From Candidatus Obscuribacteraceae bacterium (GTDB taxonomy: Bacteria; Cyanobacteriota; Vampirovibrionia; Obscuribacterales; Obscuribacteraceae): 64,000 nt of DNA. Positions within the stretch are counted from its first letter, which is position 1, and each line of letters opens with the position of its first letter. The stretch lies in assembly GCA_044226015.1 (NCBI GenBank), contig JBGAHS010000001.1, positions 736,001 to 800,000 on the forward strand, read 5' to 3'. The position numbers and the translations under genes are program-made. The notes under the pieces were generated by a model that saw only the letters and a list, made by a program, of their open reading frames with translations, ran no database searches and was not told the DNA's origin. This document shows positions 40,212 through 64,000 of the stretch, piece by piece.

Positions 40212-43200
40212 TCAATGCATGGCCATGTACATTTCAGTCTTAGTTACTTGTCGATATGGACCTTGCTTATTGTTACTCATTTGAAAAATCGAAGCGGCAT
40301 TTTTCAGGCATTTCATCATGAGTACTCTGTGGGCTGGCGCCTTTGAATTACGAAGTTGCGTAAGCCCGGACAGAGCCGACAAAATGGAAAATTCTGAGCT
40401 AAATATTGTCATTCTGTTATTGCTTTCTCGGCGAATATTGCGATGTGCAATGCAGTCGATCGCATTCACTTGAGAAAGCTCGAGTATTTGTCCAGCTGCG
40501 ACGGTAAGATGTTGGCCGATAGGGATGCAAATTTGTTGACCGCTGGCGTCGAATCTAACTTCTCCAAGATTGCGATCGTGCAAGTTGAATATCGACAATG
40601 CTCCAGAGTCTTGCAGCATTGTTAGCACTGCGGCTCCGGCTCTTATTCTTAGTTCACCAAATGCTGTGAGAACCGTCAAGTCTTTTGATGGATTGAACAA
40701 GGTCGCTCCATAATTCAGCTTAAGAAGACTTCTCTTGTTTGCTAAATCCTGCTCGGCTGCTTCATTAGCTGGGGTGATCATGTTAACTGTCAGCAATTTG
40801 CCTGGAGCCGTGAAGGTCGTGTTGCATACAATATTTCCAGCTAAGCTAGCAGCTTCAGATTTAGTTCCTGTGCTCAAAGTATAACTCTTGTTGATTGCTT
40901 CCTGGTTTGCGGTTGAAGGGGTCAAAAGTGACTGTGTCGTGTTCGTATGAGCTTCTATTGCTGAGGCTGAATCAGTAAATTCAATGTGGCTAACTTTTTC
41001 AGGCAGCATATATTCGGTACGCGTTTCAGATTTGTTTGTTACTGCTAGTGTTCTGTCATTGTTGATGAGTGCGTTTGCGCCTGGAGGATCTGCCGTGACA
41101 GTCACATTGTCACCAAATTGAATCGAGCCTGAACTTGCCGAATTGAAAATTATGTTTCGTCCCTTTGCGTTCAGCGTGATAGCTTGCACTTTTGCACCAG
41201 TAGCCAGCAATGCATTTGGATTTACTCCGCCAAAGACGACTCCTGGTGCAGTGTTGTTAACAGTAAAGTTGCCGTTGCTGCTGAGTGGGTTGCTTGGGGC
41301 TGTTGGCGGCTTGCCAATCGCGATTTTGATCACTCCATTTGTAATTGGTGATTTGAGATCAACCATGGTGTTTGTGCTTACACCATCTGCAAAAACTATT
41401 TTACCGCCCAGGTCAAGGGCGTTGATGAGTACACTTCCGCCAGTGACATTTAGATCAGCGTTTAGTGAGATTGCACCATTGCTGCCTGTTTCAAGCAAGG
41501 TGAGATTGTTAGTTCTCTTTGCTAAGTCGCCAGCTTGTCCCACGGTAATTGCTCCGTCAATGGAGAGCTGTCCAGTGTTGTTTGCTATTTTGAATGATTG
41601 TCCACTCTGCGAACCATTTACAGATAGTGCGCTGCTTCCAGAATTCAGCAGGTTGACAGAACCTTTGTCAGTCTTTGCACTTACGACATTAGCTGATATT
41701 TTGATAGCAGCTAGTTCGCTGCCGAGATTGCCAGTTTGCCCGGCTCCACCCAGATTCAAAATTGATGCTTGAAGCAAGCCGTTTCCTGAAGTACTCAGGG
41801 CACCACTACCAGAGTTGAGGGTAAGAGCTACAGTTGCTTGAAGCGGAGCCTTAACGACTATATTTCCATTGTTAGTCAAGACGAACTCAGCACTGATGCT
41901 TGTTTTGTCTGGCGATACATTAATTGTACCGGGCAGTATGTCGACGATGAAAGCACTTCCGCCATTCTGCTTGATGATCAAATTGGACGCATCTAGTAGT
42001 AGATCATTATTCGACCCTATTGCTCCAATGTCACCACTGCCGGTGCTGAGTAGTACAGTAGCCCCAATAACAGTTGCTGAACTAACACGACTGATATTTG
42101 TCGCTGAAATGTTTGTTTTTCCGCCGATTTTGCCAGTGTTAGCAGCAATTATCACGTTTCCGCTTGCTGTAATACTCACGACTGGGCTAGTGATGGCACC
42201 ATTTACCGTTATGTTGCCTGCACCACTGGTGATGTCGAATCCGTTACCAGAAAATGCGTTTGTATTTAGATTCCCAGTGCTGCCTACATTGTTGATGAAC
42301 ACGATTCCTTTAGTATCTATGGTCAAATTACTGGCATCGACCTGAATGCGTGCTTGCGCTGTACCGAAGTTTGCAGCGCTTATTAAAGCCGGGCTGACAG
42401 CGCTGGAGAGCGACACTGTTGGCGCGGTGATGGCAACACTGTTGTTGCTCTGAGTTAGAGTCGATGTTGATGAGATGTTAACGACGCTATCGGAAGAGAG
42501 CTTTCCAGCAATATTCGTGCTGCCGACATTTTGGATGCTGAGCCAGCTGTCATTGCTGGCATTGTCGGAAGAGGATGTGTTCAGTGTGAGCTTGCCCGTG
42601 TTTCTTATGTAAGCGCTGCCATTGGTGCTGACTACAGTTATTGCTTTTGCCTTAGTCAGGACGGGGCTTGCTCCGCTTCCAATGTTTCCGTTCTGGCTCA
42701 TGAGGGACAATGCAATGGTGGCAGCCAGAGTGTGCTTCGAATTTGTCGATGCAACTATGTTGCCGTTTGCCGAAATTTGAATGTTTGGGCTGCTTATACT
42801 TCCTGCAATGCTAATATCGGCGCTTGCATCGCTTGTAAGATCGAATTGAGTTCCTGCAGCGCTGTCAGAAATAGTTGCCGAGTTCTTCAAATTTAGGAAT
42901 ACAGCTGCTGCTGTTTTTGCCAAAACAGTGCCGCTGCCAATCTGTAGTCGAGATGTATTGCTACCGATATTTCCGTTCGTGCTGAGAAGGTTGATAGTCT
43001 TGCTTGCGCTTAGAGTGGCTGTTCCGCTCAGGTCAGTGATCTTGCCTGCACCAAAAGCAGTTAAAGTGATGTTGTCCGCGTTAATCGAATTGCCATTAAG
43101 GTTAATGCTGGCATTGTTGCCTTTTGTTTGCAGAAGCAGGTCCTTTACTGCTGTGATAGGCGTGGAGAGAGAAATGTCTCCTGGGTCGCTGACTGTTCCG

Positions 43201-46200
43201 GTAGTTTGCAGGCTGAAGGTTCCACCCGGCGAGCCCGAATTTAGAAGGACGATGTTGCCCGCATTGCTTATGAAAACACTGCCATTTCCCGAAGTGCTGG
43301 CAGATAGCGTCTGTGACGAGGTTGAAATTGGAATCTTGGCGCTACCGATATTTTCGTCTTCGCTAAGCAAAATTGCTGTGGAACTGAGGATTGTTCCTGT
43401 GACGCGCACGATGTCTGCAGACCCAAAACTCGTTTTGTTGCCTGTATTTGATGCTGTTAGTGAGCTGCTTCCTGTTCCGCTGGTGCCAATGTTTGCTTTG
43501 ATGGTGATGTCTCGAGGAATGTCAGGTAAGACCGTGGCATCGTTAAACGTATTGATGCTTACGTTTTGCGCTGTGATTGCACCGGCTATAATGAGCGGAC
43601 CGTTTGCATTTATGCTCACGTCTTTGACGCTCGATGCCTTGACCGTGAGTGCGTAGCCAAACAGCGTAGATACAGAATTGGCGTTTGGCGCCCATCCTAT
43701 ATATGCATCGCCGGCCGTGTTGAGAGCCAAATTTATTGCGCTGGTCTGAAGCGGCGAACTCTTTGAACCTAAATCACCCGTGCCAGTCTTCAGGGTGACG
43801 TTCAGTCCCTCGATGACTCCCGGAATTGGTCCGGGAGGGTCAATCGTAGTTATAGTTCCGGTGCCCGCTGCGTTCAGATTCACCTGTCCAGAACTGGTGC
43901 CGCCTAAGCGACTGGAAACGATGATATTCCCATCGTTTTGGGTTTGGATATCGATGACAGGTCCACTCTGGAGTAACTGTGCGACGGTAACATCTCCATC
44001 ATTCACAAGTTTGTATGTGCCAGAAAATGCGAGAGAATTGAGAACTTTCAGATTGCCCGAGTTGGTTGCAAACGCTGAAACTGGAGAAATCATTCCCAGT
44101 CCTTGTGCTGTTGTACGTATAGGTAGCGCTGCCGAACCAATGTTGCCTGTTGATGAGTTCAATGAAAGGAAGACGTCACCACCAAGAATTCTAAAAACAC
44201 CAGCGGTTTGAGAAATTGAAGCAGCTGCTATTTTTATGTTGTTTCCAGCCGAGCTGAGGCTTCCCACCTGTGCAGCCAGTACGATGTTCTTTGGAGTTTC
44301 AAGCTCTACTCGTGGGGAAATTATGCCTCCGCCTTTTGCAATCGTTATGTCGCCTGTATTGAATAACTTAAACAGGTCTCCACTTCCGGAGGCATCTACA
44401 GCCAGCGTGCCCGAATTGTTGATGTTGACCAATGCACCGTTAGTGGTGACCGACAGCTGGGATGTTGAAGTACTGACAGGGCTAGCCAGTGAACCAATGT
44501 CTCCAGAGGCAGCGTTCAGGATAATGCTTTTGCCAATTATTTTTCCGGCTGATTGGCTTATGTTGCCATTACCACTTACAGTTAACTGCACAGACGCTCC
44601 TGCTTTTCCGATGTTGGCTCCGAGGGAAATATTGGCAGTTGCTGAGCTTGTCTTTATGCTTACTTGGGGCGAACTTAGAGGACCTGTCGTAGTTATGCTG
44701 TTGAGTGAGTCAATTTCAAATTTACCAGAGGGGGCGTTTGACGTTCCGATGAAACTGTCGCTAGCAGACTTATTTGTCAGTTTGATTGCCCCAGTTCCTG
44801 AAGTCGAGGCGACCATTGTGCCACCAGAATTGACCGCATAGTTTAGTGTAATATTGCCAGCATTTGAGTTAAAGCTCACGTTGTTGCCAGTCACCGTACC
44901 GTTGTGCACCGCTCCCAGAAAACCTATGCCCGATGCGGTTCCTGTCGTGTTAAGCGTGACGTTGCCTGTCGAGCTTATGTCGTTGACAATCAATCCAAAC
45001 TCTGAGGCGACTTTCGAAGGTGTTGAGCCCGCCGTTAGCATTACATCACCAGATGCTTTTATATCGCTGAATAATGCAGTACCACCTGTTTTTGTCGTGA
45101 AGCTGCCTCCAACATCACTGTTTGCATTTATTTGGATTCCATTTTTTGAATAGGTTCCAGGAAGAAATGCGCCACTGGTGATTGCTCCATCAACGATGCT
45201 AACGCCTGTGCCAACCAGGGGTGTAGCGGCGTGCACTTCGGCGTTGCCGCTAGGCAGGCTGCCAGCTCCGTTGGCATTGATGCCACCAATTGTAATGGCA
45301 TTGGAGTTGCTTGAGCTACCGTTTGCGATAATCAATATGTTTCCGTTTTTGCCGGCAGCAGCTCCACTGGTGTCAATGCTAAGACTATTGGGCAAGTTGA
45401 TGCTGCCGGAATTGGTAGCGGAGCCCTTAAACGCGATGAGCTTAATATCTCCACCGGATGCCCCAGCAAATGTGCTCGCTGAACTCAACTGTGTCACATC
45501 CTTATTGTTAGTTACGTTGAGGTCAATCTTGCCTCCAGTTGTAGAGCCTCCGGTAATTTTAAGCGTAGTTGCTGCGTCCGCTTTGCCCGGATATGCTGAT
45601 GATGTTGCAGGGTCAATTAAAGTGAAGTTGGCTCCAGCTACAAGGGTAATCGCCCCTCCATTTGTTGTGCTCGAGCTGGTGTTGATAGTCAGGTTGTCAC
45701 CATTTGCGGTGATATCTCCTTTTGCAATAATTGCTAGCGATTCGCCTGAAAAATTGAATGGGCTTGTGAAATCTATGTTGCCGAATTGGTTGTAGAAGCT
45801 TGGGTCGCCACTTATGTTTAGCTCACCAAGATTGAGACTTGCTGTTTTCGTAGCTATATGAACTTCACCGGCATGAACGTTTACCACACCGGTTAAATCA
45901 TGTACGTTGATACCCGCGAGACCGTCTCCGGAATTAACGTTCAACGTATCGCAGAGTATATTACCGCCAGTCAATGAGAAGTCTGATTTAGCGTTGAACA
46001 AAGTATCGCGGATGTTTATCAACAAGGCTTGCAAGGTACCGTTAACATTGTTGATGGAAATGCTGCCGCTGTTCAATGATGAGATATTGATGTTACCAGT
46101 TGCTGCTGTGATTAAGTTGCTATTCGTGAGCGTATTGCTGATCACGTTCAGGTTATTACTAGCTTGCAGAACCCCAGTGTTTATAATTGAGTCCCCTGCT

Positions 46201-46841
46201 GTTAGCGTCAAATTTCCAGCACTTCGAATGACTCCCGCATTCATGATGTTATGTACGGCACTTAAATTGAGACTCAAATGCGGATTTATGATTAGTCCGT
46301 TGAGTAATGAAGCGGGCACCATTGTGGAAAGTAGGCCGCCAGTGTTGTTGAAGATATTCTGGGCAGCAACATTTGCCGTCACTGAGTGGGCATCATTTGA
46401 ATAAAAGAAAATGCGACCGGAATTGCTCAGCGTGCCACTGATATTCAAGCTGCTCTGCGCTATGTTTTGAAGTGCCGTGACGCCTCGTGGAACGACCAGT
46501 CCTTCCATGTTATTAGCAATGTTGTCAATTCGGAAGGTGCCACCGCGTGCGGTGCCGAGGGCGTTCAGCAACAAGGTCTGCGCACCGCCAGCTGACACCT
46601 GATTCAAAGCCAATTGTTCTGCGTCAGTTAGAAGGTCTCCCGGTGCTATAGCCTTTACACCAGTTCCAACTTTGATAGTGCCTGCTATTGCTGCCACATT
46701 ATCTCTAGTTCGAGATGAGAGGTCGGTAGTAGGGTCTGCCCAAGTGGGTGCAATGCTTGAGCTCAAGCAAAGTCCTAAGCCCGAAGACAGCACCCTTTCT
46801 CTGATTTTTGCTTCGCGAACTTTTTTGTTTCCAGGACGCAT
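40212..46841 (-). CDS. Giant (~2210 aa) secreted beta-helical, filamentous-hemagglutinin-like protein B
   Basis: Likely ATG at 46841 (MRPGNKK...GLCLSSSIAPTWA; ORF to 46892). Many GxIGS-x(2-4)-P-I/V-x-T repeats. Paralogue of protein A. Confidence 0.8.
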   Translation of the reverse strand: MRPGNKKVREAKIRERVLSSGLGLCLSSSIAPTWADPTTDLSSRTRDNVAAIAGTIKVGTGVKAIAPGDLLTDAEQLALNQVSAGGAQTLLLNALGTARGGTFRIDNIANNMEGLVVPRGVTALQNIAQSSLNISGTLSNSGRIFFYSNDAHSVTANVAAQNIFNNTGGLLSTMVPASLLNGLIINPHLSLNLSAVHNIMNAGVIRSAGNLTLTAGDSIINTGVLQASNNLNVISNTLTNSNLITAATGNINISSLNSGSISINNVNGTLQALLINIRDTLFNAKSDFSLTGGNILCDTLNVNSGDGLAGINVHDLTGVVNVHAGEVHIATKTASLNLGELNISGDPSFYNQFGNIDFTSPFNFSGESLAIIAKGDITANGDNLTINTSSSTTNGGAITLVAGANFTLIDPATSSAYPGKADAATTLKITGGSTTGGKIDLNVTNNKDVTQLSSASTFAGASGGDIKLIAFKGSATNSGSINLPNSLSIDTSGAAAGKNGNILIIANGSSSNSNAITIGGINANGAGSLPSGNAEVHAATPLVGTGVSIVDGAITSGAFLPGTYSKNGIQINANSDVGGSFTTKTGGTALFSDIKASGDVMLTAGSTPSKVASEFGLIVNDISSTGNVTLNTTGTASGIGFLGAVHNGTVTGNNVSFNSNAGNITLNYAVNSGGTMVASTSGTGAIKLTNKSASDSFIGTSNAPSGKFEIDSLNSITTTGPLSSPQVSIKTSSATANISLGANIGKAGASVQLTVSGNGNISQSAGKIIGKSIILNAASGDIGSLASPVSTSTSQLSVTTNGALVNINNSGTLAVDASGSGDLFKLFNTGDITIAKGGGIISPRVELETPKNIVLAAQVGSLSSAGNNIKIAAASISQTAGVFRILGGDVFLSLNSSTGNIGSAALPIRTTAQGLGMISPVSAFATNSGNLKVLNSLAFSGTYKLVNDGDVTVAQLLQSGPVIDIQTQNDGNIIVSSRLGGTSSGQVNLNAAGTGTITTIDPPGPIPGVIEGLNVTLKTGTGDLGSKSSPLQTSAINLALNTAGDAYIGWAPNANSVSTLFGYALTVKASSVKDVSINANGPLIIAGAITAQNVSINTFNDATVLPDIPRDITIKANIGTSGTGSSSLTASNTGNKTSFGSADIVRVTGTILSSTAILLSEDENIGSAKIPISTSSQTLSASTSGNGSVFISNAGNIVLLNSGSPGGTFSLQTTGTVSDPGDISLSTPITAVKDLLLQTKGNNASINLNGNSINADNITLTAFGAGKITDLSGTATLSASKTINLLSTNGNIGSNTSRLQIGSGTVLAKTAAAVFLNLKNSATISDSAAGTQFDLTSDASADISIAGSISSPNIQISANGNIVASTNSKHTLAATIALSLMSQNGNIGSGASPVLTKAKAITVVSTNGSAYIRNTGKLTLNTSSSDNASNDSWLSIQNVGSTNIAGKLSSDSVVNISSTSTLTQSNNSVAITAPTVSLSSAVSPALISAANFGTAQARIQVDASNLTIDTKGIVFINNVGSTGNLNTNAFSGNGFDITSGAGNITVNGAITSPVVSITASGNVIIAANTGKIGGKTNISATNISRVSSATVIGATVLLSTGSGDIGAIGSNNDLLLDASNLIIKQNGGSAFIVDILPGTINVSPDKTSISAEFVLTNNGNIVVKAPLQATVALTLNSGSGALSTSGNGLLQASILNLGGAGQTGNLGSELAAIKISANVVSAKTDKGSVNLLNSGSSALSVNGSQSGQSFKIANNTGQLSIDGAITVGQAGDLAKRTNNLTLLETGSNGAISLNADLNVTGGSVLINALDLGGKIVFADGVSTNTMVDLKSPITNGVIKIAIGKPPTAPSNPLSSNGNFTVNNTAPGVVFGGVNPNALLATGAKVQAITLNAKGRNIIFNSASSGSIQFGDNVTVTADPPGANALINNDRTLAVTNKSETRTEYMLPEKVSHIEFTDSASAIEAHTNTTQSLLTPSTANQEAINKSYTLSTGTKSEAASLAGNIVCNTTFTAPGKLLTVNMITPANEAAEQDLANKRSLLKLNYGATLFNPSKDLTVLTAFGELRIRAGAAVLTMLQDSGALSIFNLHDRNLGEVRFDASGQQICIPIGQHLTVAAGQILELSQVNAIDCIAHRNIRRESNNRMTIFSSEFSILSALSGLTQLRNSKAPAHRVLMMKCLKNAASIFQMSNNKQGPYRQVTKTEMYMAMH

Positions 46842-47031
46842 GATGTCACCAAAGGGGCAGGAGGATTGAGCCCTACAAAGCGTCATCCTCAATACCTACG
46901 AATTATAGTTGAGCTGTCATGAGCCCAACTGCAAAGGTGCTTATTGTTAATAAATTGCAGACTTTTCGTCTAAGGTGCCAGGCGAACTTCTGCAAAAGTA
47001 TGAATTCAGAAAGATGGGACAGGCTTCGTAA

Positions 47032-52208: not shown

Positions 52209-54125
52209 TTATAAATCTGGGCTCAATTCTTTCAAGTCTTTTTCCCTGCCAATTTTCACTGCGATTTCTCGCATGTCTTCAAGTATCATTCGCTCGGTAG
52301 AGAGGTCTGAATGATTCGTTTCGCGCAAATGTGATTTTATATACTCATAGTCCTCGCTAGCCTTCTCGGGCTGCTTCAAAGCTACCAGTATGACAGCCCG
52401 CACAACCCGGACATAAAGGTAGGAGGGGTCGTAGTCTTTATCGTAGTGATGGTAATTTGAAATAGCTTTATCAATGTGTGTAAGTGCCTTTTCTAAGTCG
52501 CCATATTTTAGTTCAGCTGAGGCCAGCGTCGTAAGGGCCGAGGTTCCCAGGTATGTGGCTAGATCTTTTCGTTCCTGGCTAATCTCGAAGCTTTCCGTTG
52601 CTGTTTTGATTGCGTTTTTGAAATCACCAGATTGAGCCTGTGCGCTAGCAAGAGCATTGAGTGTAATGACCCGTAAGCCACGTATTTCCATGCTGGAACT
52701 TGGTGTGGACTCTGTTAGCAATAGGGCTTCTTTTAAGGTTTCTTTAGCAGACTTCGCATCTTTTAGTGAATTTTGTGCACTTGCTTGCGAGCAAATCAGG
52801 GCAATGTACATAGTGCTTCTCTTGTCGTTATTTGCACGACAGAGGTCGATCGCTTTTTGAATATTCGTCAGGCTGGTTTCGTAATCAGCCTTTCTTGCGA
52901 AAAGGTCCGCTAAATATTTGTGAGCACTACAAATTTGCTGCCATTTGTTGGTGGTGTTGTTTCGTTTCATCCACGATTGTATTAGCGAGATAGCGTCATC
53001 TATTCGTCCCGCGTTTGCTAGTTTAGTTGCCTGATTGTTAGTAGCCTCCAGGCTCAACGGGCGCAGCGGAGTGCTCAGGGATACTTTCTGATTCGATTCA
53101 GTCACTACCTCGAGAGCGGCCATTCGCTGTTTGACGATGATGGCTGCACATACTCCAACCACTGTCATTCCAATTAGCATTGTCCACAAATAGAATGTAC
53201 CGAACAAATCCTTTCCTGTTTTTTGTTCGGGTGGCAGCGCGAAATGCATGCCAGATTTTGTCGATGCGTCGCGCAGGCGCACAAGCTCTTCACGCAATTG
53301 CGTCGCTGTTTCCGTTCTTTTATCGGGGTCTTCCTCTGTTGCTTTTGCGATTAGTGAGCTTAGTGGTTCGGTAACTTTACCGTCTATGGCAACAGACTCA
53401 AACAGAGATACGCCTAACGCATAAATATCCGCACGCGCGTCCGCCTCGCGTCCAAGATATTGTTCAGGGCTTATATATTTTCTGGTACCTAGAATTTCGC
53501 CTTGTTGGGTGAGTTTCTGATGAGCCGCATCATCTTCGAGATTTAATTTCGACATTCCGAAGTCAACTACTTTAACGTTTGAGTTGAGGTCACCACTATT
53601 TAGAATCAGTATGTTTCCGGGCTTTATGTCTCTGTGTATCACATTTCTGGAATGAGCATGTTCGAGTGCCGCTGCTACCTGACAGAAAATGCTAACTGCT
53701 CGTTCGGGGGTGAGGACCTTCTCTTTAGCTAGAACTTCGGCAAGGTCTTGCCCTTCCAGGTATTCCTGTGCCATGTAGGGCACACCCTGTGCAGTCACTG
53801 CAAATGAATAAACTTTGGCGATATTTTCCTGTTCGAGGTGTGCTACTGAAATTGCTTCGCGCCGAAATCGCTGCAAGTCTATCAACTCAGATGATTTTAG
53901 GATTTTTAGCGCTAATATTCGGTTTAGCTCTTTGTGTCTCGCTTTATAAACACGGCTCATTCCACCCATACCGATAAAATCGAGAATCTCGTATTTGTCA
54001 TCAAATATGGTGCCAATTCTGGAGTCTCTTTCGCTTAGCCTGACCCTGTCAAATGGGCATTCCTGTACATCATTCGCAAACTGACGGTGGCAAACGATGC
54101 AAATTTTTCCAGGTGAGGTCGACAT
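52209..54125 (-). CDS. Membrane Ser/Thr protein kinase with N-terminal Zn-ribbon and C-terminal TPRs
   Basis: GMGGMSRVY, ALK, HRDIKPGN, DFG and YISPE motifs, a TM segment and TPR-like repeats. The start overlaps the upstream stop (TGATG). Confidence 0.9.
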   Translation of the reverse strand: MSTSPGKICIVCHRQFANDVQECPFDRVRLSERDSRIGTIFDDKYEILDFIGMGGMSRVYKARHKELNRILALKILKSSELIDLQRFRREAISVAHLEQENIAKVYSFAVTAQGVPYMAQEYLEGQDLAEVLAKEKVLTPERAVSIFCQVAAALEHAHSRNVIHRDIKPGNILILNSGDLNSNVKVVDFGMSKLNLEDDAAHQKLTQQGEILGTRKYISPEQYLGREADARADIYALGVSLFESVAIDGKVTEPLSSLIAKATEEDPDKRTETATQLREELVRLRDASTKSGMHFALPPEQKTGKDLFGTFYLWTMLIGMTVVGVCAAIIVKQRMAALEVVTESNQKVSLSTPLRPLSLEATNNQATKLANAGRIDDAISLIQSWMKRNNTTNKWQQICSAHKYLADLFARKADYETSLTNIQKAIDLCRANNDKRSTMYIALICSQASAQNSLKDAKSAKETLKEALLLTESTPSSSMEIRGLRVITLNALASAQAQSGDFKNAIKTATESFEISQERKDLATYLGTSALTTLASAELKYGDLEKALTHIDKAISNYHHYDKDYDPSYLYVRVVRAVILVALKQPEKASEDYEYIKSHLRETNHSDLSTERMILEDMREIAVKIGREKDLKELSPDL

Positions 54126-56101
54126 CAGCTTCTATTCCATTCGTTTTGGCTGATGTTCTTCACCGAGCTAATCATCCAGCGCCCTTTTTTGCGAATGAGC
54201 TGAAATGCAAAATGACCAGTTCCACCTTTGCTGAAATATGCCATGTCCACCAGTGTTTTAGCACTGTCCTTTGACACTTTGATAACCTTGGTGGCATTTC
54301 CAGGAGCAATTTCTGAATCGGGGTTGTGATTTGATAATTTGAATCCGCGCTTGAATTCTTCAAAGTTGTTCTTTCTCAAACTCGAAGCCGGGTCAATGTT
54401 GTCGTAAGCTGCTTCCCATTGTCGTCGTCCTAATTGCCCGTAGTGTCGTCTCACCACGGAATCGGCATCTTTTACTATGGGGTCTACCACACCTGTGAAA
54501 TCGGCTGAGTCCAGCTCTAAACCGTTAATGCCCTGGTGATAAGTGAAGTTCCAGAGCGCTCCGTTCAAGAGCCCTTCAGGATTGCTGATTTTTACTGCTT
54601 CGTTATTATAAATTCCAAGCTTCAGCGTCTTGCCTTCTACGTTCAATTCGCATTCCGCATTATCACCATGGCGATCGTAATAATAGAGAACCCCATTCAC
54701 AGTGTGTTGTGGCGGGGCTTCCTTTTTTGATGGCATCAAAACTGCTGTTGCTGTGCAAATGAGGATAAGAGCTGCAGCAGCGAATCCCCAAAGTGCCATT
54801 CTGGCGCTATGACTTGTAATTCTGCTGATTTGAGAAACTTGTTCTTGTGATGAGTCCTTATCGGGACGAGCAGATTTTGTTTCCAAACCAGCGAACGTGT
54901 CAGCCTTGGGCGAGTCGGCTTGTTTCAACTCAGCATCTGACTCAATTGTTTTTTGTTTTGATTCAGAAATTACAACTGTGCTTTCGTCGGGTTTTTGTAC
55001 TTTTTTCTTTTGCTCAGCTTTGTTGCCGTTAGAAAGCACAGGCTTCTCCAGCTTTTGACTTGCGTCTGCAGCCCGGGTCTGAGGAGTTCCTTTTGATTGA
55101 CCCTGTCCGCCACCTTTATTCTCTAGCTGCAGAAATGCAGTCAATGCTGCGTTCAACTCACCCATTGATTGGAAGCGTTTCTGCGGGTCCTTTTCCAGGC
55201 AACGCATTACGATTGCTTCCATTTCTTTTCTTATGGTTTTGTTTTGCACCACATCTTTTAGTGCCGGCGGTTTCTCCTTTATTTGCATGCTGAGAACCTG
55301 CATTAGGTCCTCGGCTTCAAATGGAAGTTTGCCGGAGAGTGCTTCAAACATGCATACGCCAGCGGCATAAATGTCTGAACGCTGGTCAATTTTTAAGCCA
55401 CGAGATTGCTCGGGGCTCATGTAGTCCGGCGTGCCAAGGCATTCTCCTGTCCTGGTGATTTTTTCTTTTGAGTCGCCGCGAGCATTGAAAGCTTTTGCTA
55501 ATCCAAAATCCAGTACCTTGATATGCGGTCCGCGAGAGGTTGAACTTATGAAAATGTTCGTCGGCTTCAAGTCTCGGTGCAGAATTCCCATTCCGTGCGC
55601 ATGTTGCAGTGCATCACAAACTTGAGCAAAAATCTTGGCACATGCCCTTTCGTTGAGCTGCCCATTCAACTCAAGAAATTCCTGGAGACTGGCTCCCTCA
55701 AGATATTCCATCACCAGGTAAAGGTCACCGTTTTCGGTCACCCCAAAATCGTAAATCGTTATGATGTTTGGATGATTGAGCAGGCTTGCGCTCTTAGCCT
55801 CTTGCTCGAACCTCTTCCACATCGAAGGGTCGTAGGTCAAAACCTCGGCAATGCATTTAATTGCCACTGGGCGGTCTAATGCGACATGCTTTCCTCGATA
55901 GATAACACCCATGCCGCCGCGGGTGAGTACTTCTTGAACTTCATATTTCCCGGCGATTCGCGTGCCTACCATTCGGTCTGGGCGGCGGGAGATAAGTGGT
56001 CCGCCATCGTATGGGCAGACGGGGTGATCACCCGTAACCTCGCGCTGGCAGAGGACGCAAATCTGCGTCTTGCAAGGGGTTTCTTGTTCCGGGGTGGACA
56101 T
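54125..56101 (-). CDS. Membrane Ser/Thr protein kinase with N-terminal Zn-ribbon and extracytoplasmic domain
   Basis: GGMGVIY, VAIK, HPNI, HRDLKPTN, DFGLAK and GTPDYMSPEQ motifs; TM ALWGFAAAALILICTATAVLM. Likely ATG at 56101 (ORF to 56170). Confidence 0.92.
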   Translation of the reverse strand: MSTPEQETPCKTQICVLCQREVTGDHPVCPYDGGPLISRRPDRMVGTRIAGKYEVQEVLTRGGMGVIYRGKHVALDRPVAIKCIAEVLTYDPSMWKRFEQEAKSASLLNHPNIITIYDFGVTENGDLYLVMEYLEGASLQEFLELNGQLNERACAKIFAQVCDALQHAHGMGILHRDLKPTNIFISSTSRGPHIKVLDFGLAKAFNARGDSKEKITRTGECLGTPDYMSPEQSRGLKIDQRSDIYAAGVCMFEALSGKLPFEAEDLMQVLSMQIKEKPPALKDVVQNKTIRKEMEAIVMRCLEKDPQKRFQSMGELNAALTAFLQLENKGGGQGQSKGTPQTRAADASQKLEKPVLSNGNKAEQKKKVQKPDESTVVISESKQKTIESDAELKQADSPKADTFAGLETKSARPDKDSSQEQVSQISRITSHSARMALWGFAAAALILICTATAVLMPSKKEAPPQHTVNGVLYYYDRHGDNAECELNVEGKTLKLGIYNNEAVKISNPEGLLNGALWNFTYHQGINGLELDSADFTGVVDPIVKDADSVVRRHYGQLGRRQWEAAYDNIDPASSLRKNNFEEFKRGFKLSNHNPDSEIAPGNATKVIKVSKDSAKTLVDMAYFSKGGTGHFAFQLIRKKGRWMISSVKNISQNEWNRS

Positions 56102-56238
56102 AAATGCGTCAGGACTCCCATTTGGGGAGAATTTGTATGGATGTATTTTACCGCAATTAACTACTCCCAAGTCAGCTTACCCCCGGCAGCTCTTAATTAG
56201 CCGGATTCAGACCTTTGAAATCCAGCTATAGCGGTGTT

Positions 56239-59200
56239 TTATTTTTCGATATTTGAACCTGTTGAAGCCTGTTTTAACGGAAGCTTTACAATGAGTGCAT
56301 TCATTTCCTCTCTGTCTCTGTGGTATTCGAGGCTGCCTCCATGGGCGCTTATGACCCGATATGAGAGCACTGGGGAGAGTATCGAAAGGTGCAAAGAGCT
56401 AATTACAGAGTGATTTGCAGTTTTTCGTCTTAATAGATTGCTAATTAGATTGGCACTGGCTTGTCTATCAAATAGTCCGCTAATCTCCTCCTCTGTGAAT
56501 TGCTCCCCATTGTCTTTAATACACCAGAGCACATGTTCCGTCGTGTATTCAGCGCTCACTTGTACCGTTGCACCTGCAGGAAGCCTGGCTGCGCTGAGAG
56601 TTATGAGATTTGAAACTGCCTGAACTATTCGCTCAAACTCAAGAAAAAGAGTTATTTCATCTAAGGCTTCACGCAGGTCAATTTCAACCTCATACTGACG
56701 CGACTGGGCAATCTCACAGGACTTTTCCAGGCACTCTGCGGAAGATACTTCTGAGCGAACGAATGTCATTTTGCCAGACTCTATTTTTTCCAGGTCGAGC
56801 AGGTCGTTTATCAATTCAATCAATACTTCGCTCTGATAAATAATGTCTTCGAGCAGGGGTCTTGCATTCGCGCCGACGGGACCTGTGGCACCTTCATGAA
56901 TTAGCGCTGCTGTGCCAGTCATCGATGTTAAAGGGCTGCGAAGGTCATGGCTTACAACTGCAAGAAATTCTTCTTTCAATTGCTCTAGTTCTTTTCTTGC
57001 AGTGATATCATGTGCGATGCAATACAGGTAGTTTTGCTCACTTGTTCGGGAAAGAGAGACTAGCATGTATGCCATTTTTCCATCGCTGGAGCGGATCTTA
57101 ATCTCGCGATTCTCCGCTGAACTTAGCTCTGAACTCAAAAATCGAGTGAAGATATCGCTATCATCTTTTTCGACAAAATTGAAGATTGATTGATTTCTCA
57201 AATCATCTTTATTGCACGATAAAATATCTTCTGCTGCCGGGTTGGAACTGAGGAATCTTCCTTGATTGTCCAGTATGCAAATCAAATCTCTAGAATTGTC
57301 TAAAATTGCGCGTTCTTTCTTTCGCGCCGCAGCCAACTTTTCTGCTGTGTCGTGAAACGCCTTATCTAATTTTGATATTTCGTCGCTACCTTCTACCACC
57401 GGATTTAGCGGCAGCTCTCTTGCGACTCTAGATGCATTATCGGCTTGTATAGCAAGCCGTGAAGTGATATCTCTGCTGAAAAATCTTGCCAGAAACAATG
57501 ACAGCAAGAGATTGAAGAGTAATCCCGAGTTCAATGCTATTCCCTGCAGCTCGCGCAATTGATTTTGCTTTTGCGGGTTGATGAATTCGCGTCGCTCGGC
57601 TTCATCAATTAGTTTTCCTACTCTCTTGGAGATGCCCGTCGAAGTTGCCCAGAGTTCATACCTGTCTGGCTTATATCGCCCAATGTTGTTCTTCGTGTAA
57701 CCATTCTCTTCTAGAGCCCGTCGTGAGGCTTCGATGTGACTCACCATTCGGTCATGGAGTTTTTCGGCTGCCCCGAAAAGTTCTGCTTCTTTCGCGTCAT
57801 GCCTGACGAGTCTTTTCAATTTGTTGCCAGAGTCGATCAAGTGTTCATTTAGTTTGTCATACTCAAACCATTGCTTCTTCGTCTTAATATGTATCACTGT
57901 CACGCAGTTGGTGAAGTAGGCGTCGAGCAGCCTGTATGCGGTTTGTGCAATCTGTCTTTGTCTCGATTCCTCGACTCTGCTCTTTTGTGTTTGAATCAAT
58001 AGAGTAGTTATGCTCACCACGAAAATGAGTTCGAAAAGAATTGGAACCCCGATTAATAAAGCACCTTTTTGAAACAAGGACAGCTTTGAACCTGCTGACT
58101 TAGTCGTCTGCGATATGACAGGGAAAGCCTGGCTTCGCGCTGTTGCAGCTGATTCTGCCTTTGCTTTGACTATAAGCTTTTGTTGATTCTCCCAATTGGA
58201 AAAAATCGCTTCATTCTTTGGCAACGTAAATACGAATTCGCTGCCAACGCCCTCTTTGCTTTCTACATAGATTTTGCCACCGCTCGATTCAATTATGTCT
58301 TTGCAAATTGGCAGCCCAAGCCCGGTGCCAGCTTTTGCTTTGCCATCTCGCGCGTCAACTTGTTTGAACTTCTCGAATACGGACATTCTGTGTTCTTCTG
58401 GTATACCGCGACCTTTATCGAGCACGGACACTCGTATATATTCCTCTTCTTCCTCTCTGGCAATTAGAGTTACGCAGCTGTCTTGAGGAGAGAACTTGAT
58501 GGAGTTAGAACCCAGGTTTACTAGCACTTGAATAATCTTGTTAGGGTCAGCGTAGCAAGTCGTTGCATCGCATTCGATTTCGAACTTTATTTTTGACTTT
58601 TGAGCCATGCCTTCAAGGTCAGCGATTGCTCTTTCGAGAATTGGTTTAAGCGCAACTATTTGTCGGTTTGCAGATTGTTGTTCTGTTTCGGAGTCAGTTA
58701 ATTCAAGAAGCTCGTTTACCAGAGATAACAATCGTGCGCCGTTGCTTTTGATTGACTCTAGCCTGCTGATTGCTTTGCTACTCAGTTCGTTTTGCAGCGA
58801 CCCTACAAGGGTTTCCACATTTGAGGAAATTCTAAAAAGCGGTTCTCTCAAATCAGAACTCATCATCGAAATGAATGCGTGTTTGTTATGCTCAAGTTGT
58901 TTTCGCTCAGTTATGTCATGCACTACGCAGTAAAGTACATTCTCCTCTTCGGCAAAATAAATTGACCACAGCGTTTCTATCTTCTTTCCGCTGGGTCCAT
59001 AAACGCTACTTTCGATGTCTTGTTGTTCGTTTGTTTCTCGGGCTCGGCGAAATTTTGATAGAGCAGATTCTATTTCTTCCTTGTTCTCACCAAGAATTTG
59101 TGATACTGAATGTAGTAGCAGTTCGTCTTCTGCATATCCCCATACCCTGAGGCATGCTGGGTTGATCTTGCAGAACTTAAGGTCTGCATCAAGTACGCAG

Positions 59201-60051
59201 ATAACGTCGTTCGCACTTTCCAGGAGCAAGCGCTCTCTGTCCGCTGCATCTTTGAGGCTCTGATGCATTTTGTGAAAGGACTGGTCGAGTTGCGCTATTT
59301 CGTCGGCACCTCCAATCTGAGGCAACAACTCGTATCCCTCAGCAAGTCGAAGTGTATTGCTCATAATTGACTTGAGCCTGCTCGTGATGCTTGTGCGGTA
59401 GAAATATACGAGAGCAAGCCCAGCAAGAACATTCACTGTGAGTCCGACCGCAAGTATCTGGAATTGCAAATTTTGCAAGGTGGCGCTTCTTTTACGGCTA
59501 TCTTCAGCCATCTGTTCTTGCATTTGAGTGACTATAGACATGCGTTGCATAGTCACTTCTCGCTTTTGACCGAATTTGTCTTGTATTCTGTGTAAATCAG
59601 CCGCAATTCCGAAGAGGCTAGTTCCATGCCTAGCCGGTGCTATTACCTCATCTAGGATGGGTGAGAGATCGTCGATGCTTGTTATGAGTTGTTCGGCGGC
59701 TTGTTCAGCTTCTCGATTTCCTTGAGAACAGGCCCTGAGCGCCCTTTTTCTGTCCTCCATGCCTGTTCTGTCCTGGTCGAACAGTTTGATGAAAAACTGA
59801 GGGTCGCCCTGGTACGCTGCAAAAGCAGCAATGACAGCTTCGTTTGCTAATTGCATCAGCTTTGCCGAATGTGCTGATGCTTGCCTGAATCTATTCTCGC
59901 GAACGCTTTCTCTGTCAGACTCTGCTAGCAACAGGGCTAGTGAAACAATCAAGGTAATTTCAATTATTAGCGGGGCGGCGACAAGAATGAGCCCCTTGTG
60001 GAAAACTTGGAGCCCCATTGTTTTCTTAGGTATGTTGGCGACACTGCTCAT
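56239..60051 (-). CDS. Tandem double sensor histidine kinase: (TM-sensor-TM-HAMP-PAS-HisKA-HATPase) x2
   Basis: Two paralogous halves starting at LQVFHKGLILV and LSLFQKGALLI. Each has a HAMP motif (DEIAQLD/DEISKLD), a PAS domain (HDITERK/HDITARK) and a kinase core. Confidence 0.9.
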   Translation of the reverse strand: MSSVANIPKKTMGLQVFHKGLILVAAPLIIEITLIVSLALLLAESDRESVRENRFRQASAHSAKLMQLANEAVIAAFAAYQGDPQFFIKLFDQDRTGMEDRKRALRACSQGNREAEQAAEQLITSIDDLSPILDEVIAPARHGTSLFGIAADLHRIQDKFGQKREVTMQRMSIVTQMQEQMAEDSRKRSATLQNLQFQILAVGLTVNVLAGLALVYFYRTSITSRLKSIMSNTLRLAEGYELLPQIGGADEIAQLDQSFHKMHQSLKDAADRERLLLESANDVICVLDADLKFCKINPACLRVWGYAEDELLLHSVSQILGENKEEIESALSKFRRARETNEQQDIESSVYGPSGKKIETLWSIYFAEEENVLYCVVHDITERKQLEHNKHAFISMMSSDLREPLFRISSNVETLVGSLQNELSSKAISRLESIKSNGARLLSLVNELLELTDSETEQQSANRQIVALKPILERAIADLEGMAQKSKIKFEIECDATTCYADPNKIIQVLVNLGSNSIKFSPQDSCVTLIAREEEEEYIRVSVLDKGRGIPEEHRMSVFEKFKQVDARDGKAKAGTGLGLPICKDIIESSGGKIYVESKEGVGSEFVFTLPKNEAIFSNWENQQKLIVKAKAESAATARSQAFPVISQTTKSAGSKLSLFQKGALLIGVPILFELIFVVSITTLLIQTQKSRVEESRQRQIAQTAYRLLDAYFTNCVTVIHIKTKKQWFEYDKLNEHLIDSGNKLKRLVRHDAKEAELFGAAEKLHDRMVSHIEASRRALEENGYTKNNIGRYKPDRYELWATSTGISKRVGKLIDEAERREFINPQKQNQLRELQGIALNSGLLFNLLLSLFLARFFSRDITSRLAIQADNASRVARELPLNPVVEGSDEISKLDKAFHDTAEKLAAARKKERAILDNSRDLICILDNQGRFLSSNPAAEDILSCNKDDLRNQSIFNFVEKDDSDIFTRFLSSELSSAENREIKIRSSDGKMAYMLVSLSRTSEQNYLYCIAHDITARKELEQLKEEFLAVVSHDLRSPLTSMTGTAALIHEGATGPVGANARPLLEDIIYQSEVLIELINDLLDLEKIESGKMTFVRSEVSSAECLEKSCEIAQSRQYEVEIDLREALDEITLFLEFERIVQAVSNLITLSAARLPAGATVQVSAEYTTEHVLWCIKDNGEQFTEEEISGLFDRQASANLISNLLRRKTANHSVISSLHLSILSPVLSYRVISAHGGSLEYHRDREEMNALIVKLPLKQASTGSNIEK

Positions 60052-60068: not shown

Positions 60069-60476
60069 TTATTTTAGATGAAGCGAGACCCCTACTAATT
60101 CAGGATACCCAGTTGTGACATCAAGTACTCGCTCAAACTTCCATTCTTTGCTGAAGTCGTGCACCACAATTTCGCATGTTGTGTAAACCAGATTGCCTGG
60201 CATCAAGTGCCCACCGAGTGTTTCACCGGTTGAGTTGGAAAACGAAGCATGAATATGCAAGCCAGATTTTCCAAGCGTGCCAGTGGCTGATACGATTTCG
60301 AGCGGACCCTTGATTGTGCTGGCTTCTGGCTGATCGGCAAAACGAAGACTTCCCGTTTTTAGCGAACCGACAAGACTGAGAACAACGCCTGCATCAATGT
60401 GCTGTTCGGCTACAAGCGCTTTCAGTTCGTTGTAAACGTCTTGGTCTGGTTTCAAGCGTTTTACTAGAATCGGCAT
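60069..60476 (-). CDS. PPC/DUF296 domain protein
   Basis: RLKPDQD, VGSL...LRFA, GPLEIVSATGTL, LHIH and GGHL motifs. Confidence 0.88.
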   Translation of the reverse strand: MPILVKRLKPDQDVYNELKALVAEQHIDAGVVLSLVGSLKTGSLRFADQPEASTIKGPLEIVSATGTLGKSGLHIHASFSNSTGETLGGHLMPGNLVYTTCEIVVHDFSKEWKFERVLDVTTGYPELVGVSLHLK

Positions 60477-62426: not shown

Positions 62427-62490
62427 CCATTCTCGCCGCGATAGCCCACGCCTATGATGCTCGTACGGTTGGTTGCCGTGGGAGAGTCAT

Positions 62491-63699
62491 ATGGAAAATT
62501 CCAGGGATCAAATCCCTGTCTTAAAACCTGGGGAAAAGTTTGCGGAGCCAAACGAGCCTCAGTCTGAGTTAGAGCCTTCAGTTAGAAAATTGTACCTGGA
62601 TAGCCTGCCGAAGACTGTCCAGATTAGAGCAGACAACGCCACCGGAAGCGGTTTTTTCATGGACAAAGATGGAAGAATCGGAACGGCGGCTCACGTTATT
62701 CTTGGTTCAAGAGAGCAGTTTGCAATCACTAGCGATGGTACGAAGTACAAGTTGCAGATCGAAAAAATTGATGATCTGAACGACATCGCAATTATGAAGC
62801 CGCTTGGTTATAAATCGGGTTCCTACCCTGTAGCAGAGATGGGTGACTCGACTTCCATAAAAAAGGGAACTGAATTCTTTCCGATGGGGCATCCTCAGGG
62901 ACGACGCCCTGCGTATATCTCTCCAGGTGAATTTGGCTCCGAAATGAAGAATTCCCAGCTCTTGCTGGATTTCCATCAGATGACTCAAGAAGAGCTGGAC
63001 GAGCGAATCGGTGAAGCCATAACTCCGAAGGAAACGCCTTTCATGAAATCAGCTCTCGAGCGTGATCTATTGAATGGAGTTGTTCATATTCGTCCGGGTG
63101 ATTCGGGCGGACCAGCCTTTGATGCAAACGGCAAAGTAATTGGCATCAATGACATGATCACCTCGTTCGAGAACGGGTACTTTGTTCCGGTAGAGAAAAT
63201 TCGCGCTCTATATGAGCAGAAGAATACTGACTTTGAAATAAGCTATCATCGTTCGCCAACCGCCTGGGCAGAGTCATATCAAAATCAATGGACTCAGAAG
63301 CCGATTGCGGCAGCGACTGAAACTGCGACTTTTGCTGGAGCCGCTTATCTAGGTAGCAGGGTCATTGGAGCTTCGCCACGCATGGGAAGTCTTGCTGTTG
63401 GGCTGGGCGAAGGAATGATGCTCTACAGCGATGCGGGTCAACTCATGCGCAGCACCGACGGAAGAGACCAGCTCAAATATACTCTTGCAAGCGCAGCGGA
63501 TGCGTCTGGATTGTTAGGCAGTGCTGCATTTCTGACTCGAATGCGAACAGGCGGTGCAATTGGCATCGGAGTTGGCATACTCGGACGCATAGCGGCAGAT
63601 TTTATTCCGACTCGCATGGTTATGACAGATCTGGTACGTAAGTCAGACCCTACGATGCCGCCTTTTACACAAGACATTGAGAAAAATCTGGGACTTTAA
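62491..63699 (+). CDS. Trypsin-like (S1/HtrA-type, no PDZ) serine protease with hydrophobic Gly-rich C-terminal helices
   Basis: GSGF, TAAHV (His), DIAI (Asp) and PGDSGGP (Ser) motifs; ATG at 62491 after GGAGAG. Confidence 0.88.
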   Translation: MENSRDQIPVLKPGEKFAEPNEPQSELEPSVRKLYLDSLPKTVQIRADNATGSGFFMDKDGRIGTAAHVILGSREQFAITSDGTKYKLQIEKIDDLNDIAIMKPLGYKSGSYPVAEMGDSTSIKKGTEFFPMGHPQGRRPAYISPGEFGSEMKNSQLLLDFHQMTQEELDERIGEAITPKETPFMKSALERDLLNGVVHIRPGDSGGPAFDANGKVIGINDMITSFENGYFVPVEKIRALYEQKNTDFEISYHRSPTAWAESYQNQWTQKPIAAATETATFAGAAYLGSRVIGASPRMGSLAVGLGEGMMLYSDAGQLMRSTDGRDQLKYTLASAADASGLLGSAAFLTRMRTGGAIGIGVGILGRIAADFIPTRMVMTDLVRKSDPTMPPFTQDIEKNLGL

Positions 63700-63714: not shown

Positions 63715-64000
63715 GTGAGTGATTTAAATATTCCAGTGCTGAAACTTGAAGTTCCAATCGGTAATCCGAATGAACCGCAGCCAAAAGTCGATGAAGCTTC
63801 TAGTAAGCTGTATATGGACTCTCAGGATAGCGTCTTGAGAATACAAGCCGGCAACAAACATGCCAGTGGTTTTCTTATTGATGACAAACAGCACATAGTA
63901 AGCTCTGCACATAACATCATAGGCTCAAAAGAGCAGTTTGCTGTTGATCGTCAGGGCAACCGCTATAAGCTTGAAATCGAGAAACTCGACGACCTCGCTG
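63715..64000 (+). CDS. Second, paralogous trypsin-like serine protease (runs off the window)
   Basis: Hand translation from GTG: MSDLNIPVLK...PNEPQ...KLYMDS...ASGF...SSAHNIIGSKEQFAV...YKLEIEKLDDL, colinear with the N-terminus of the upstream protease. Confidence 0.85.
   Translation, partial: MSDLNIPVLKLEVPIGNPNEPQPKVDEASSKLYMDSQDSVLRIQAGNKHASGFLIDDKQHIVSSAHNIIGSKEQFAVDRQGNRYKLEIEKLDDLA

Follow-up and report, generated by a model that had tools for sequence, protein, structure and literature searches.

A tandem sensor histidine kinase with complementary losses in its two modules, and the recurrence of this split in Obscuribacterales

The question raised by this locus is whether two sensor-kinase modules, each lacking a part that the other retains, can make up one working kinase within a single chain. 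The gene occupies 56239..60051 (minus strand) of a 64,000-nucleotide stretch from a Candidatus Obscuribacteraceae bacterium (assembly GCA_044226015.1, contig JBGAHS010000001.1, positions 736,001 to 800,000), hereafter the window. Its first module retains a complete ATPase domain and has lost the phosphoacceptor His, and its second module retains the His and has lost the ATP-binding motifs. More than a hundred relatives, from several separate lineages, are divided in the same way, so the two halves are likely to pair into one working site. From sequence comparison, we put the probability at roughly 75% that the protein is an obligate pseudo-heterodimer with one active site, in which ATPase 1 phosphorylates His1035. 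The architecture, the reciprocal losses, their conservation, the mirror-image and two-gene forms and the several origins are established.

The open reading frame (ORF) encodes 1270 amino acids (aa) with no internal stops; its Pfam matches are HATPase_c, HisKA and PAS, each over two stretches, and HAMP. Each module has the layout transmembrane helix (TM), sensor, TM, HAMP, PAS, dimerisation and histidine-phosphotransfer domain (DHp), catalytic and ATP-binding domain (CA). A HisKA DHp followed by HATPase_c, the arrangement of class I sensor histidine kinases, is found twice by Pfam. The parts of the gene are as follows.

56239..60051, minus strand: tandem double sensor histidine kinase, 1270 aa (P0001; ORF call, Pfam)
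59395..59997, minus strand: module 1 TM1, helical extracytoplasmic sensor and TM2, residues ~19-219, boundaries approximate (hydrophobic ends; residues 60-219 all-helical in the model; no Pfam match)
58900..59394, minus strand: module 1 HAMP and PAS, residues 220-384 (Pfam)
58696..58899, minus strand: DHp1 without the His; Arg440 (equivalent of VicK R256) kept, H+4 residue lost (alignment)
58855..58857, minus strand: Ser399 (TCT) at the phosphoacceptor His position of module 1 (codon read)
58216..58554, minus strand: CA1 with its ATPase domain intact (residues 500-612), the predicted donor of the phosphate (Pfam, motif score, homologues)
58075..58215, minus strand: linker of ~47 aa back to the membrane, poorly conserved (identity 0.18 among close orthologues)
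57472..58074, minus strand: module 2 TM3, helical sensor and TM4, residues ~660-860 (model; no Pfam match)
56992..57471, minus strand: module 2 HAMP and PAS, residues 861-1020 (Pfam)
56776..56991, minus strand: DHp2 with complete H-box; Lys1089 (equivalent of VicK R269) kept, R256 equivalent lost (Val1076) (alignment)
56947..56949, minus strand: His1035 (CAT), predicted sole phosphoacceptor (invariant in 54/54)
56272..56646, minus strand: CA2, ATP-binding motifs gone, fold predicted intact, DHp-docking residues kept family-wide (alignment, model)

The N, G1, F and G2 boxes of ATPase 1 are all complete. In ATPase 2, the N-box is missing its second Asn and G1 its second Gly, and G2 is gone. The R269 equivalent of DHp1 is also lost, being Asp453, just beyond the span 58696..58899. 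Neither module combines an acceptor His with ATP-binding motifs; each alone is a pseudokinase, and the pair is complete. The preliminary description of this DNA had claimed two full sensor-kinase modules, a Ser in place of the His at 58855-58857 beside a textbook ATPase 1, and a module 2 with its His at 56947-56949 and with losses in the N-box, G1 and G2. All of this is borne out by the duplicated Pfam stretches, the two codons and the state of the boxes. An assembly artefact was considered and ruled out: the stretch was recovered as a single contig in 2/2 sequencing runs, with 0 and 2 letters differing and no gaps (the window may itself derive from either run), and full-length relatives occur in 7/7 other genomes of the genus, where the frames are open. 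Annotation pipelines label such proteins merely 'PAS domain S-box protein'.

The direct homologues, 54 full-length proteins including the target, keep the same division. ATPase 1 is intact and the second His is present in 54/54, whereas the first His is kept in only 7/54 and, of the 53 proteins with an ATPase 2 (one homologue is truncated), 5 have it intact. Across 11 close orthologues, ATPase 1 is better conserved than ATPase 2 (identity 0.64 vs 0.29) and DHp2 better than DHp1 (0.70 vs 0.55); in five fully intact tandems, the identities of the two ATPases are 0.63 and 0.64. The dead ATPase 2 keeps docking-side residues (Arg in 52/52, the F-box Phe in 46/50), which is consistent with a structural role. 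Ser399 was considered as an alternative acceptor and rejected because the position is variable, with Ser in 36/52 and nine other residues in the rest.

In other genera of the family the top matches span one module only, and 12 genomes outside the family gave no match at E<=1e-60. Public records of the relatives are titled Ca. Obscuribacterales or Melainabacteria, and the kinase family is expanded. Among 73 loci, reciprocal tandems and pairs are confined to records titled Obscuribacterales. A fully intact PAS tandem kinase (L096) comes from a record titled 'Proteobacteria bacterium'. Two tandem kinase genes, L020 (G007:C50) and L021 (G002:C287), are split in two frames within sensor 2 or the linker; fission, frameshift and assembly error are all possible there.

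We surveyed the target's own genome without steering by the pattern. It holds 83 ORFs with DHp or ATPase matches, including 16 two-module membrane kinases: 11 target-like, 3 mirror-image, 1 intermediate and 1 intact. Pooled with homology hits and loci from elsewhere, these gave 170 proteins, which were reduced to 149 by dropping those sharing over half of their 12-mers. ATPase intactness was judged by a ten-residue score, tightened from a looser seven-residue test under which 17 proteins of one subfamily had counted as intact although their ATPase 2 is partly eroded. The score is bimodal over the 298 modules, 172 scoring 10, none 8 or 9, and the remainder 0-7. Reciprocal loss is found in 119 of the 149 non-redundant kinases. 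The target's order accounts for 86, comprising 84 with a His-less, live-ATPase module before a His-bearing, dead-ATPase module and 2 with ATPase 2 cut off; the mirror order accounts for 33 (25 with ATPase 1 deleted, 1 partial and 7 with ATPase 1 degenerate). The remainder are 24 fully intact kinases and 6 with both His and one ATPase. Since these intermediates (6/6) have all lost an ATPase and kept both His, the sequences suggest that the ATPase is lost before the His.

These counts bear on a rival account of the pattern, in which parts made redundant by a tandem duplication decayed neutrally and the modules do not pair. Redundancy was available, because fully intact tandems (24/149) and intact adjacent pairs exist, and a few copies are broken into two frames. 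However, neutral decay should often kill the His and the ATPase of the same module, and this is seen in 0/125 non-intact proteins; judged by their motifs, 119 of the 125 have one unit with the ATPase and the other with the His. No wholly dead module was found (0/149), and neither the His nor the ATPase is absent altogether from any protein (0/149 each). The pattern also occurs in both orders and with at least five origins, and open frames are kept across the genus. Neutral decay thus seems to be very improbable.

The number of origins was estimated from trees built on sensor, HAMP and DHp columns, with the H-box and the ATPase excluded. On a likelihood tree of 55 rows, chosen from 393 so that every type is included (LG+G4; a quick search, which gave long-branch warnings), the His-only modules require 8 changes, and at least 5 are forced by branches with support of 95 or more. 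A single origin of His-only modules is rejected by the approximately unbiased (AU) test (p-AU 7.6e-11), the tested group being defined by the trait itself after two earlier trees had been viewed. Together with their intact relatives, the PAS tandems, the target among them, fall into a single clade (support 98-99). The mirror family and the intact kinases related to it make up another clade (100), and the two genes of L018 group as sisters (99). The His gene of one two-gene pair has a fused type as its sister (98), which links the two forms by fusion or fission. In a first module tree, the degenerate module 1 sequences had stood far apart from the intact ones related to them, a probable long-branch effect; this placement was rejected, as smaller likelihood trees reunited them. 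At the level of sequence, the split is real, conserved and convergent, and appears to have arisen at least five times, in several lineages.

The mirror, two-gene and soluble forms repeat the division in other layouts. L001-L004 (G000:C8:228042, C10:374995, C8:604429 and C12:264098) are mirror-image tandems of ~850 aa with the first ATPase deleted, for which intact relatives of ~1000 aa and degenerate intermediates exist. In the model of a mirror protein, the DHp1 hairpin passes through a disordered linker into the next membrane helix, and the ATPase is absent. Eight adjacent gene pairs, encountered incidentally without a systematic search, have the same split in both orders and span several genera (G000:C8, L018, L075, L076, L077, L078, L095 and L144); two are less clear-cut, the live ATPase of L077 and the dead ATPase of L095 each scoring 8/10. 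The pair at G000:C8 is L010 (G000:C8:205401-208467). Intact adjacent kinase pairs are also found (L019, L072 and L073). The protein L011 (G000:C6:370708-375222; 1504 aa) has no predicted membrane helices and carries Pro/Glu-rich repeats N-terminally. Its C-terminus (residues ~1190-1490) consists of a DHp with the His, a short linker, a DHp without the His and an intact ATPase, and this layout recurs in one non-identical homologue, P0241.

Whether the two DHp domains share one bundle can be approached through residues that contact different partners in a solved kinase. In the cis kinase VicK, as described in passages of its structural report (PMC3582566), E253, R256 and R259 of helix 2 touch the active ATPase, R269 from the other monomer flanks His217, and the inactive ATPase rests on such docking contacts. 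R256 would then lie in the same monomer as the active ATPase. The equivalents in the target are Arg440 for R256 and Lys1089 for R269. The counts that follow are descriptive, as kin are not independent: the R256 equivalent occurs in the live-ATPase module vs the other module in 52/52 vs 8/52 PAS tandems, in 23/25 vs 1/25 and 7/7 vs 0/7 of the mirror types, and in 5/5 vs 0/5 of a third type. The R269 equivalent goes with the His, being present in the His module vs the other module in 52/52 vs 2/52 PAS tandems, 18/22 vs 1/25 and 4/7 vs 1/7 of the mirror types, 5/5 vs 0/5 of the third type and 21/24 vs 4/24 of a fourth; in eight aligned two-frame cases (seven pairs and one split tandem), every His gene has it, and so does one ATPase gene. 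Within the His module, neither the His nor the acidic residue at H+1 varies (52/52). If the connection between helix 1 and helix 2 is of the trans type, the His, H+1, H+4, both helix-2 residues and the live ATPase would converge at one site, and every lost element at the other. A cis connection would set the kept ATPase opposite a position that varies.

Several results weigh against a trans-acting pseudo-heterodimer. The R256 equivalent is uninformative in the fourth subfamily (3/24 vs 4/24), in which ATPase 2 is only partly eroded, 17/24 having been rated intact by the first, looser score. The DHp loop has the HK853 length in 62/69 single-module relatives and in both target modules, and the DHp hairpin is 1-2 residues longer than those of WalK and VicK. 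HK853, WalK and VicK are all described as acting in cis, so the trans geometry would be unlike that of the nearest solved relatives. Loop handedness, not length, is said to set cis vs trans. In trans-autophosphorylating kinases of the CpxA/EnvZ type, it puts the ATPase of the partner next to the His; the residue partition of the target agrees with this type, and its loop length with HK853. The single-chain AlphaFold model (residues 60-1259; mean predicted local distance difference test score, pLDDT, 83; predicted template modelling score, pTM, 0.49) gave the domain folds, with that of ATPase 2 kept, and a Foldseek search matched single kinase chains; neither bears on DHp1-DHp2 pairing.

A complex prediction with the two cytoplasmic halves scored 0.54 vs 0.00 for the best control, with run contact agreement of at least 76% and partner pLDDT of at least 77, and weakly supports the pairing of module 1 with module 2: the mark was met by 116/157 solved and 2/215 mismatched pairs, and at 0.60 or under stand 18/157 solved pairs and both mismatches. 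As further counterpoints, this score may reflect likeness to solved kinase dimers, and the prediction covered module 1 with module 2 only. The 0/149 for wholly dead modules is itself weakened, because such a module might be deleted and go uncounted.

In a rival arrangement, two chains pair as module 1 with module 1 and module 2 with module 2, and ATPase 1 phosphorylates a phosphotransferase-like module 2 dimer. Split kinases do exist, CheA4 phosphorylating CheA3 (PMC6829392), and the complex score could come from family likeness. However, the ATPase-docking helix-2 residues are kept in the His-less module and the His-flanking ones in the His module, which points to a shared bundle. In homodimers, the ATPase-docking residues would face no His. 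We suppose that transfer between homodimers is unlikely.

The genomic setting has to be considered here. No receiver domain lies within 57.8 kb of the target gene, in agreement with the earlier remark that no response regulator is adjacent, and Pfam finds none inside the 1270-aa protein; the genome has 133 receiver-domain matches. In this genome, a receiver is found within 1.5 kb of 4/17 tandem kinases vs 49/65 other kinases (p=1.3e-4), and of 10/12 single-module paralogues. Mostly orphan genes would suit a cis-connected bundle without autophosphorylation, i.e. a phosphatase, a phosphate sink or a DivL-like pseudokinase sensor in which nucleotide binding by ATPase 1 is regulatory only. The loop length is that of cis kinases, and DivL is described, in passages of PMC4211667, as a His-less pseudokinase without kinase or phosphatase activity. 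Against this, the His module never varies at the His or at the acidic H+1 position, and every live ATPase is complete, in contrast to DivL, which binds ATP weakly. Cis wiring would also put the kept ATPase and its docking residues round a position occupied by ten different residues. A protein without autokinase activity seems to be quite unlikely.

The obligate pseudo-heterodimer is the reading that we prefer. Module 1 would pair with module 2 along the sensor, HAMP, PAS and DHp, probably within one chain, and the halves would form one four-helix bundle in which ATPase 1 phosphorylates His1035 in trans at a single site. The dead ATPase 2 would remain docked as a structural half, and the phosphate on His1035 would presumably go to a response regulator encoded at an unlinked locus. 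According to passages of PMC11371814, homodimeric kinases switch on their two sites singly, so the second site would be dispensable once the halves differ. The one-active, one-inactive asymmetry of homodimeric kinases would thereby be hard-wired. The likely history is a tandem duplication, followed by fusion (not always), loss of one ATPase and finally loss of the His in the module retaining its ATPase. The preliminary description had attributed the reciprocal loss to selection and proposed that the halves pair into one site, from ATPase 1 to the second His. This proposal gains support from the conservation of the pattern in tandem homologues (first His kept in 7/54, ATPase 2 intact in 5/53), the mirror and two-gene forms, the separate origins and the trans-type DHp partition.

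Compatible with the pseudo-heterodimer, as an addition to it, is an AND gate in which each sensor has its own ligand and both are required to switch the single site. Both sensors are kept, are mutually different and are equally conserved in close orthologues (0.43 vs 0.42; 0.48 vs 0.55). On the other hand, no ligand is known, and Pfam has no match for either sensor or for those of two single-module relatives. Over the wider family, only 4 columns are conserved in sensor 1, compared with 20 in sensor 2. A single ligand held between the two subunits is a common arrangement in dimers of four-helix sensors, and one asymmetric composite ligand site at the sensor interface is equally likely. The FasB/FasC kinase pair of Streptococcus pyogenes needs the membrane part of one partner only (PMC12675982). 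We regard the AND gate as a tentative possibility. It is likewise a speculation, to be held with some doubt, that Obscuribacterales repeatedly made single-chain, single-site heterodimers with two different extracellular sensors, which would be hard-wired two-input gates or asymmetric receptors acting in trans despite a cis-like DHp loop.

The immediate neighbours of the kinase gene are three.

54125..56170, minus strand: downstream Ser/Thr kinase, 681 aa, syntenic in the genus (Pfam)
52209..54125, minus strand: second Ser/Thr kinase, with tetratricopeptide repeats (TPRs), 638 aa (Pfam)
60069..60476, minus strand: PCC-domain gene (135 aa) lying 17 bases upstream of the kinase start, syntenic (Pfam)

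Both Ser/Thr kinases mentioned in the preliminary description are thus present, but they are not a family trait. A Ser/Thr kinase lies within two genes of 3/17 tandem loci vs 10/65 other kinases (p=1; motif-based gene calls), and a functional link as a family trait was rejected as unsupported. These neighbours are local synteny, outside the proposed mechanism. At the matching locus, the downstream Ser/Thr kinase is present in G004, G006 and G007 and none was detected in G002; three of these four loci have two tandem kinase genes in a row. The two Ser/Thr kinase genes (52209-56170, minus strand) have base 54125 in common between stop and start, and both proteins begin with a Cys-x2-Cys...Cys-Pro-x-Asp motif, possibly a zinc ribbon. 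A promoter and terminator scan of the locus gave signals below shuffled expectation and was uninformative. Elsewhere in the window, 40212-46892 (minus strand) encodes a 2226-aa protein rich in Gly/Ser/Thr/Asn repeats, adhesin-like by eye and with no Pfam match at E<=0.01, and a trypsin-like peptidase gene at 62473-63699 (plus strand) is followed by a similar-looking gene at 63715-64000 (plus strand) that runs off the window. At G000:C12:494476-518850, an ORF of 8124 aa adjoins another tandem kinase.

Sensor kinases are textbook homodimers; here, a division of labour between an ATPase half and a His half appears to have been fixed at least five times in one lineage. The forms present are fused in both orders, with one ATPase deleted, or gene pairs, together with intact and intermediate states, and compose a natural series from homomer to obligate heteromer by complementary loss. 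Such proteins would offer kinases locked in an asymmetric state with one site, which otherwise only crystals have captured, a direct test of loop length as a predictor of cis or trans phosphorylation, and a ready-made scaffold whose two sensors can be edited independently. In a full-text literature search, which left out most subscription papers, and in passages of a 2026 preprint on atypical HisKA domains, neither this family nor fused reciprocal tandems were described.

Among known systems, the class I kinases HK853, WalK/VicK and SrrB resemble each module in layout and are the best Protein Data Bank (PDB) matches by sequence and fold. They are homodimers with two sites, whereas the target has two unlike, incomplete modules in one chain; HK853, WalK and VicK act in cis, whereas the residue partition of the target points to trans. 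TodS/TmoS, fungal and amoebal dual histidine kinases and myxobacterial TRT proteins have two transmitter modules per chain, as the target does. However, TodS needs both His and relays through a receiver between them; the target has no receiver, one His and complementary halves. In four unrelated two-transmitter proteins that we examined, both modules are intact.

Module 1 resembles a His-less kinase such as DivL, but DivL binds ATP weakly and is inactive (passages of PMC4211667), whereas ATPase 1 of the target is complete. The DivL type, with no acceptor His and poor ATP binding, does not fit the whole protein, whose homologues have His1035 and the ATPase 1 motifs in 54/54. Module 2 resembles the phosphotransferases ChpT and Spo0B, which have a His-bearing domain and a dead ATPase. 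The DivL and ChpT/Spo0B types are here joined in one gene.

In CheA3/CheA4 of Rhodobacter sphaeroides, the His domain and the ATPase are likewise on separate units, but these form a class II (Hpt-type) chemotaxis kinase of two proteins without the shared DHp bundle proposed for the target. The engineered EnvZ[AAB], with two DHp and one ATPase in one chain, is active in cells (passages of PMC8971529); the mirror forms whose ATPase 1 is deleted, and the soluble L011 (DHp-DHp-CA), are its natural counterparts. EnvZ[AAB] is artificial and soluble with identical DHp copies, whereas the natural forms have diverged and carry a pair of membrane sensors. As a working precedent, FasB/FasC comes nearest, a pair in which the ATPase and the His belong to different sensor-kinase units, as predicted here. 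Passages of PMC12675982, which call heterodimeric sensor kinases rare, report that FasB and FasC heterodimerise, that FasC His246 is required and the FasC kinase domain dispensable, and that FasB is the proposed ATPase supplier, a role for a FasB His not being excluded. FasB and FasC are two genes of an operon that includes a regulator; the target, a single fused orphan gene, is FasBC-like rather than a member of that system.

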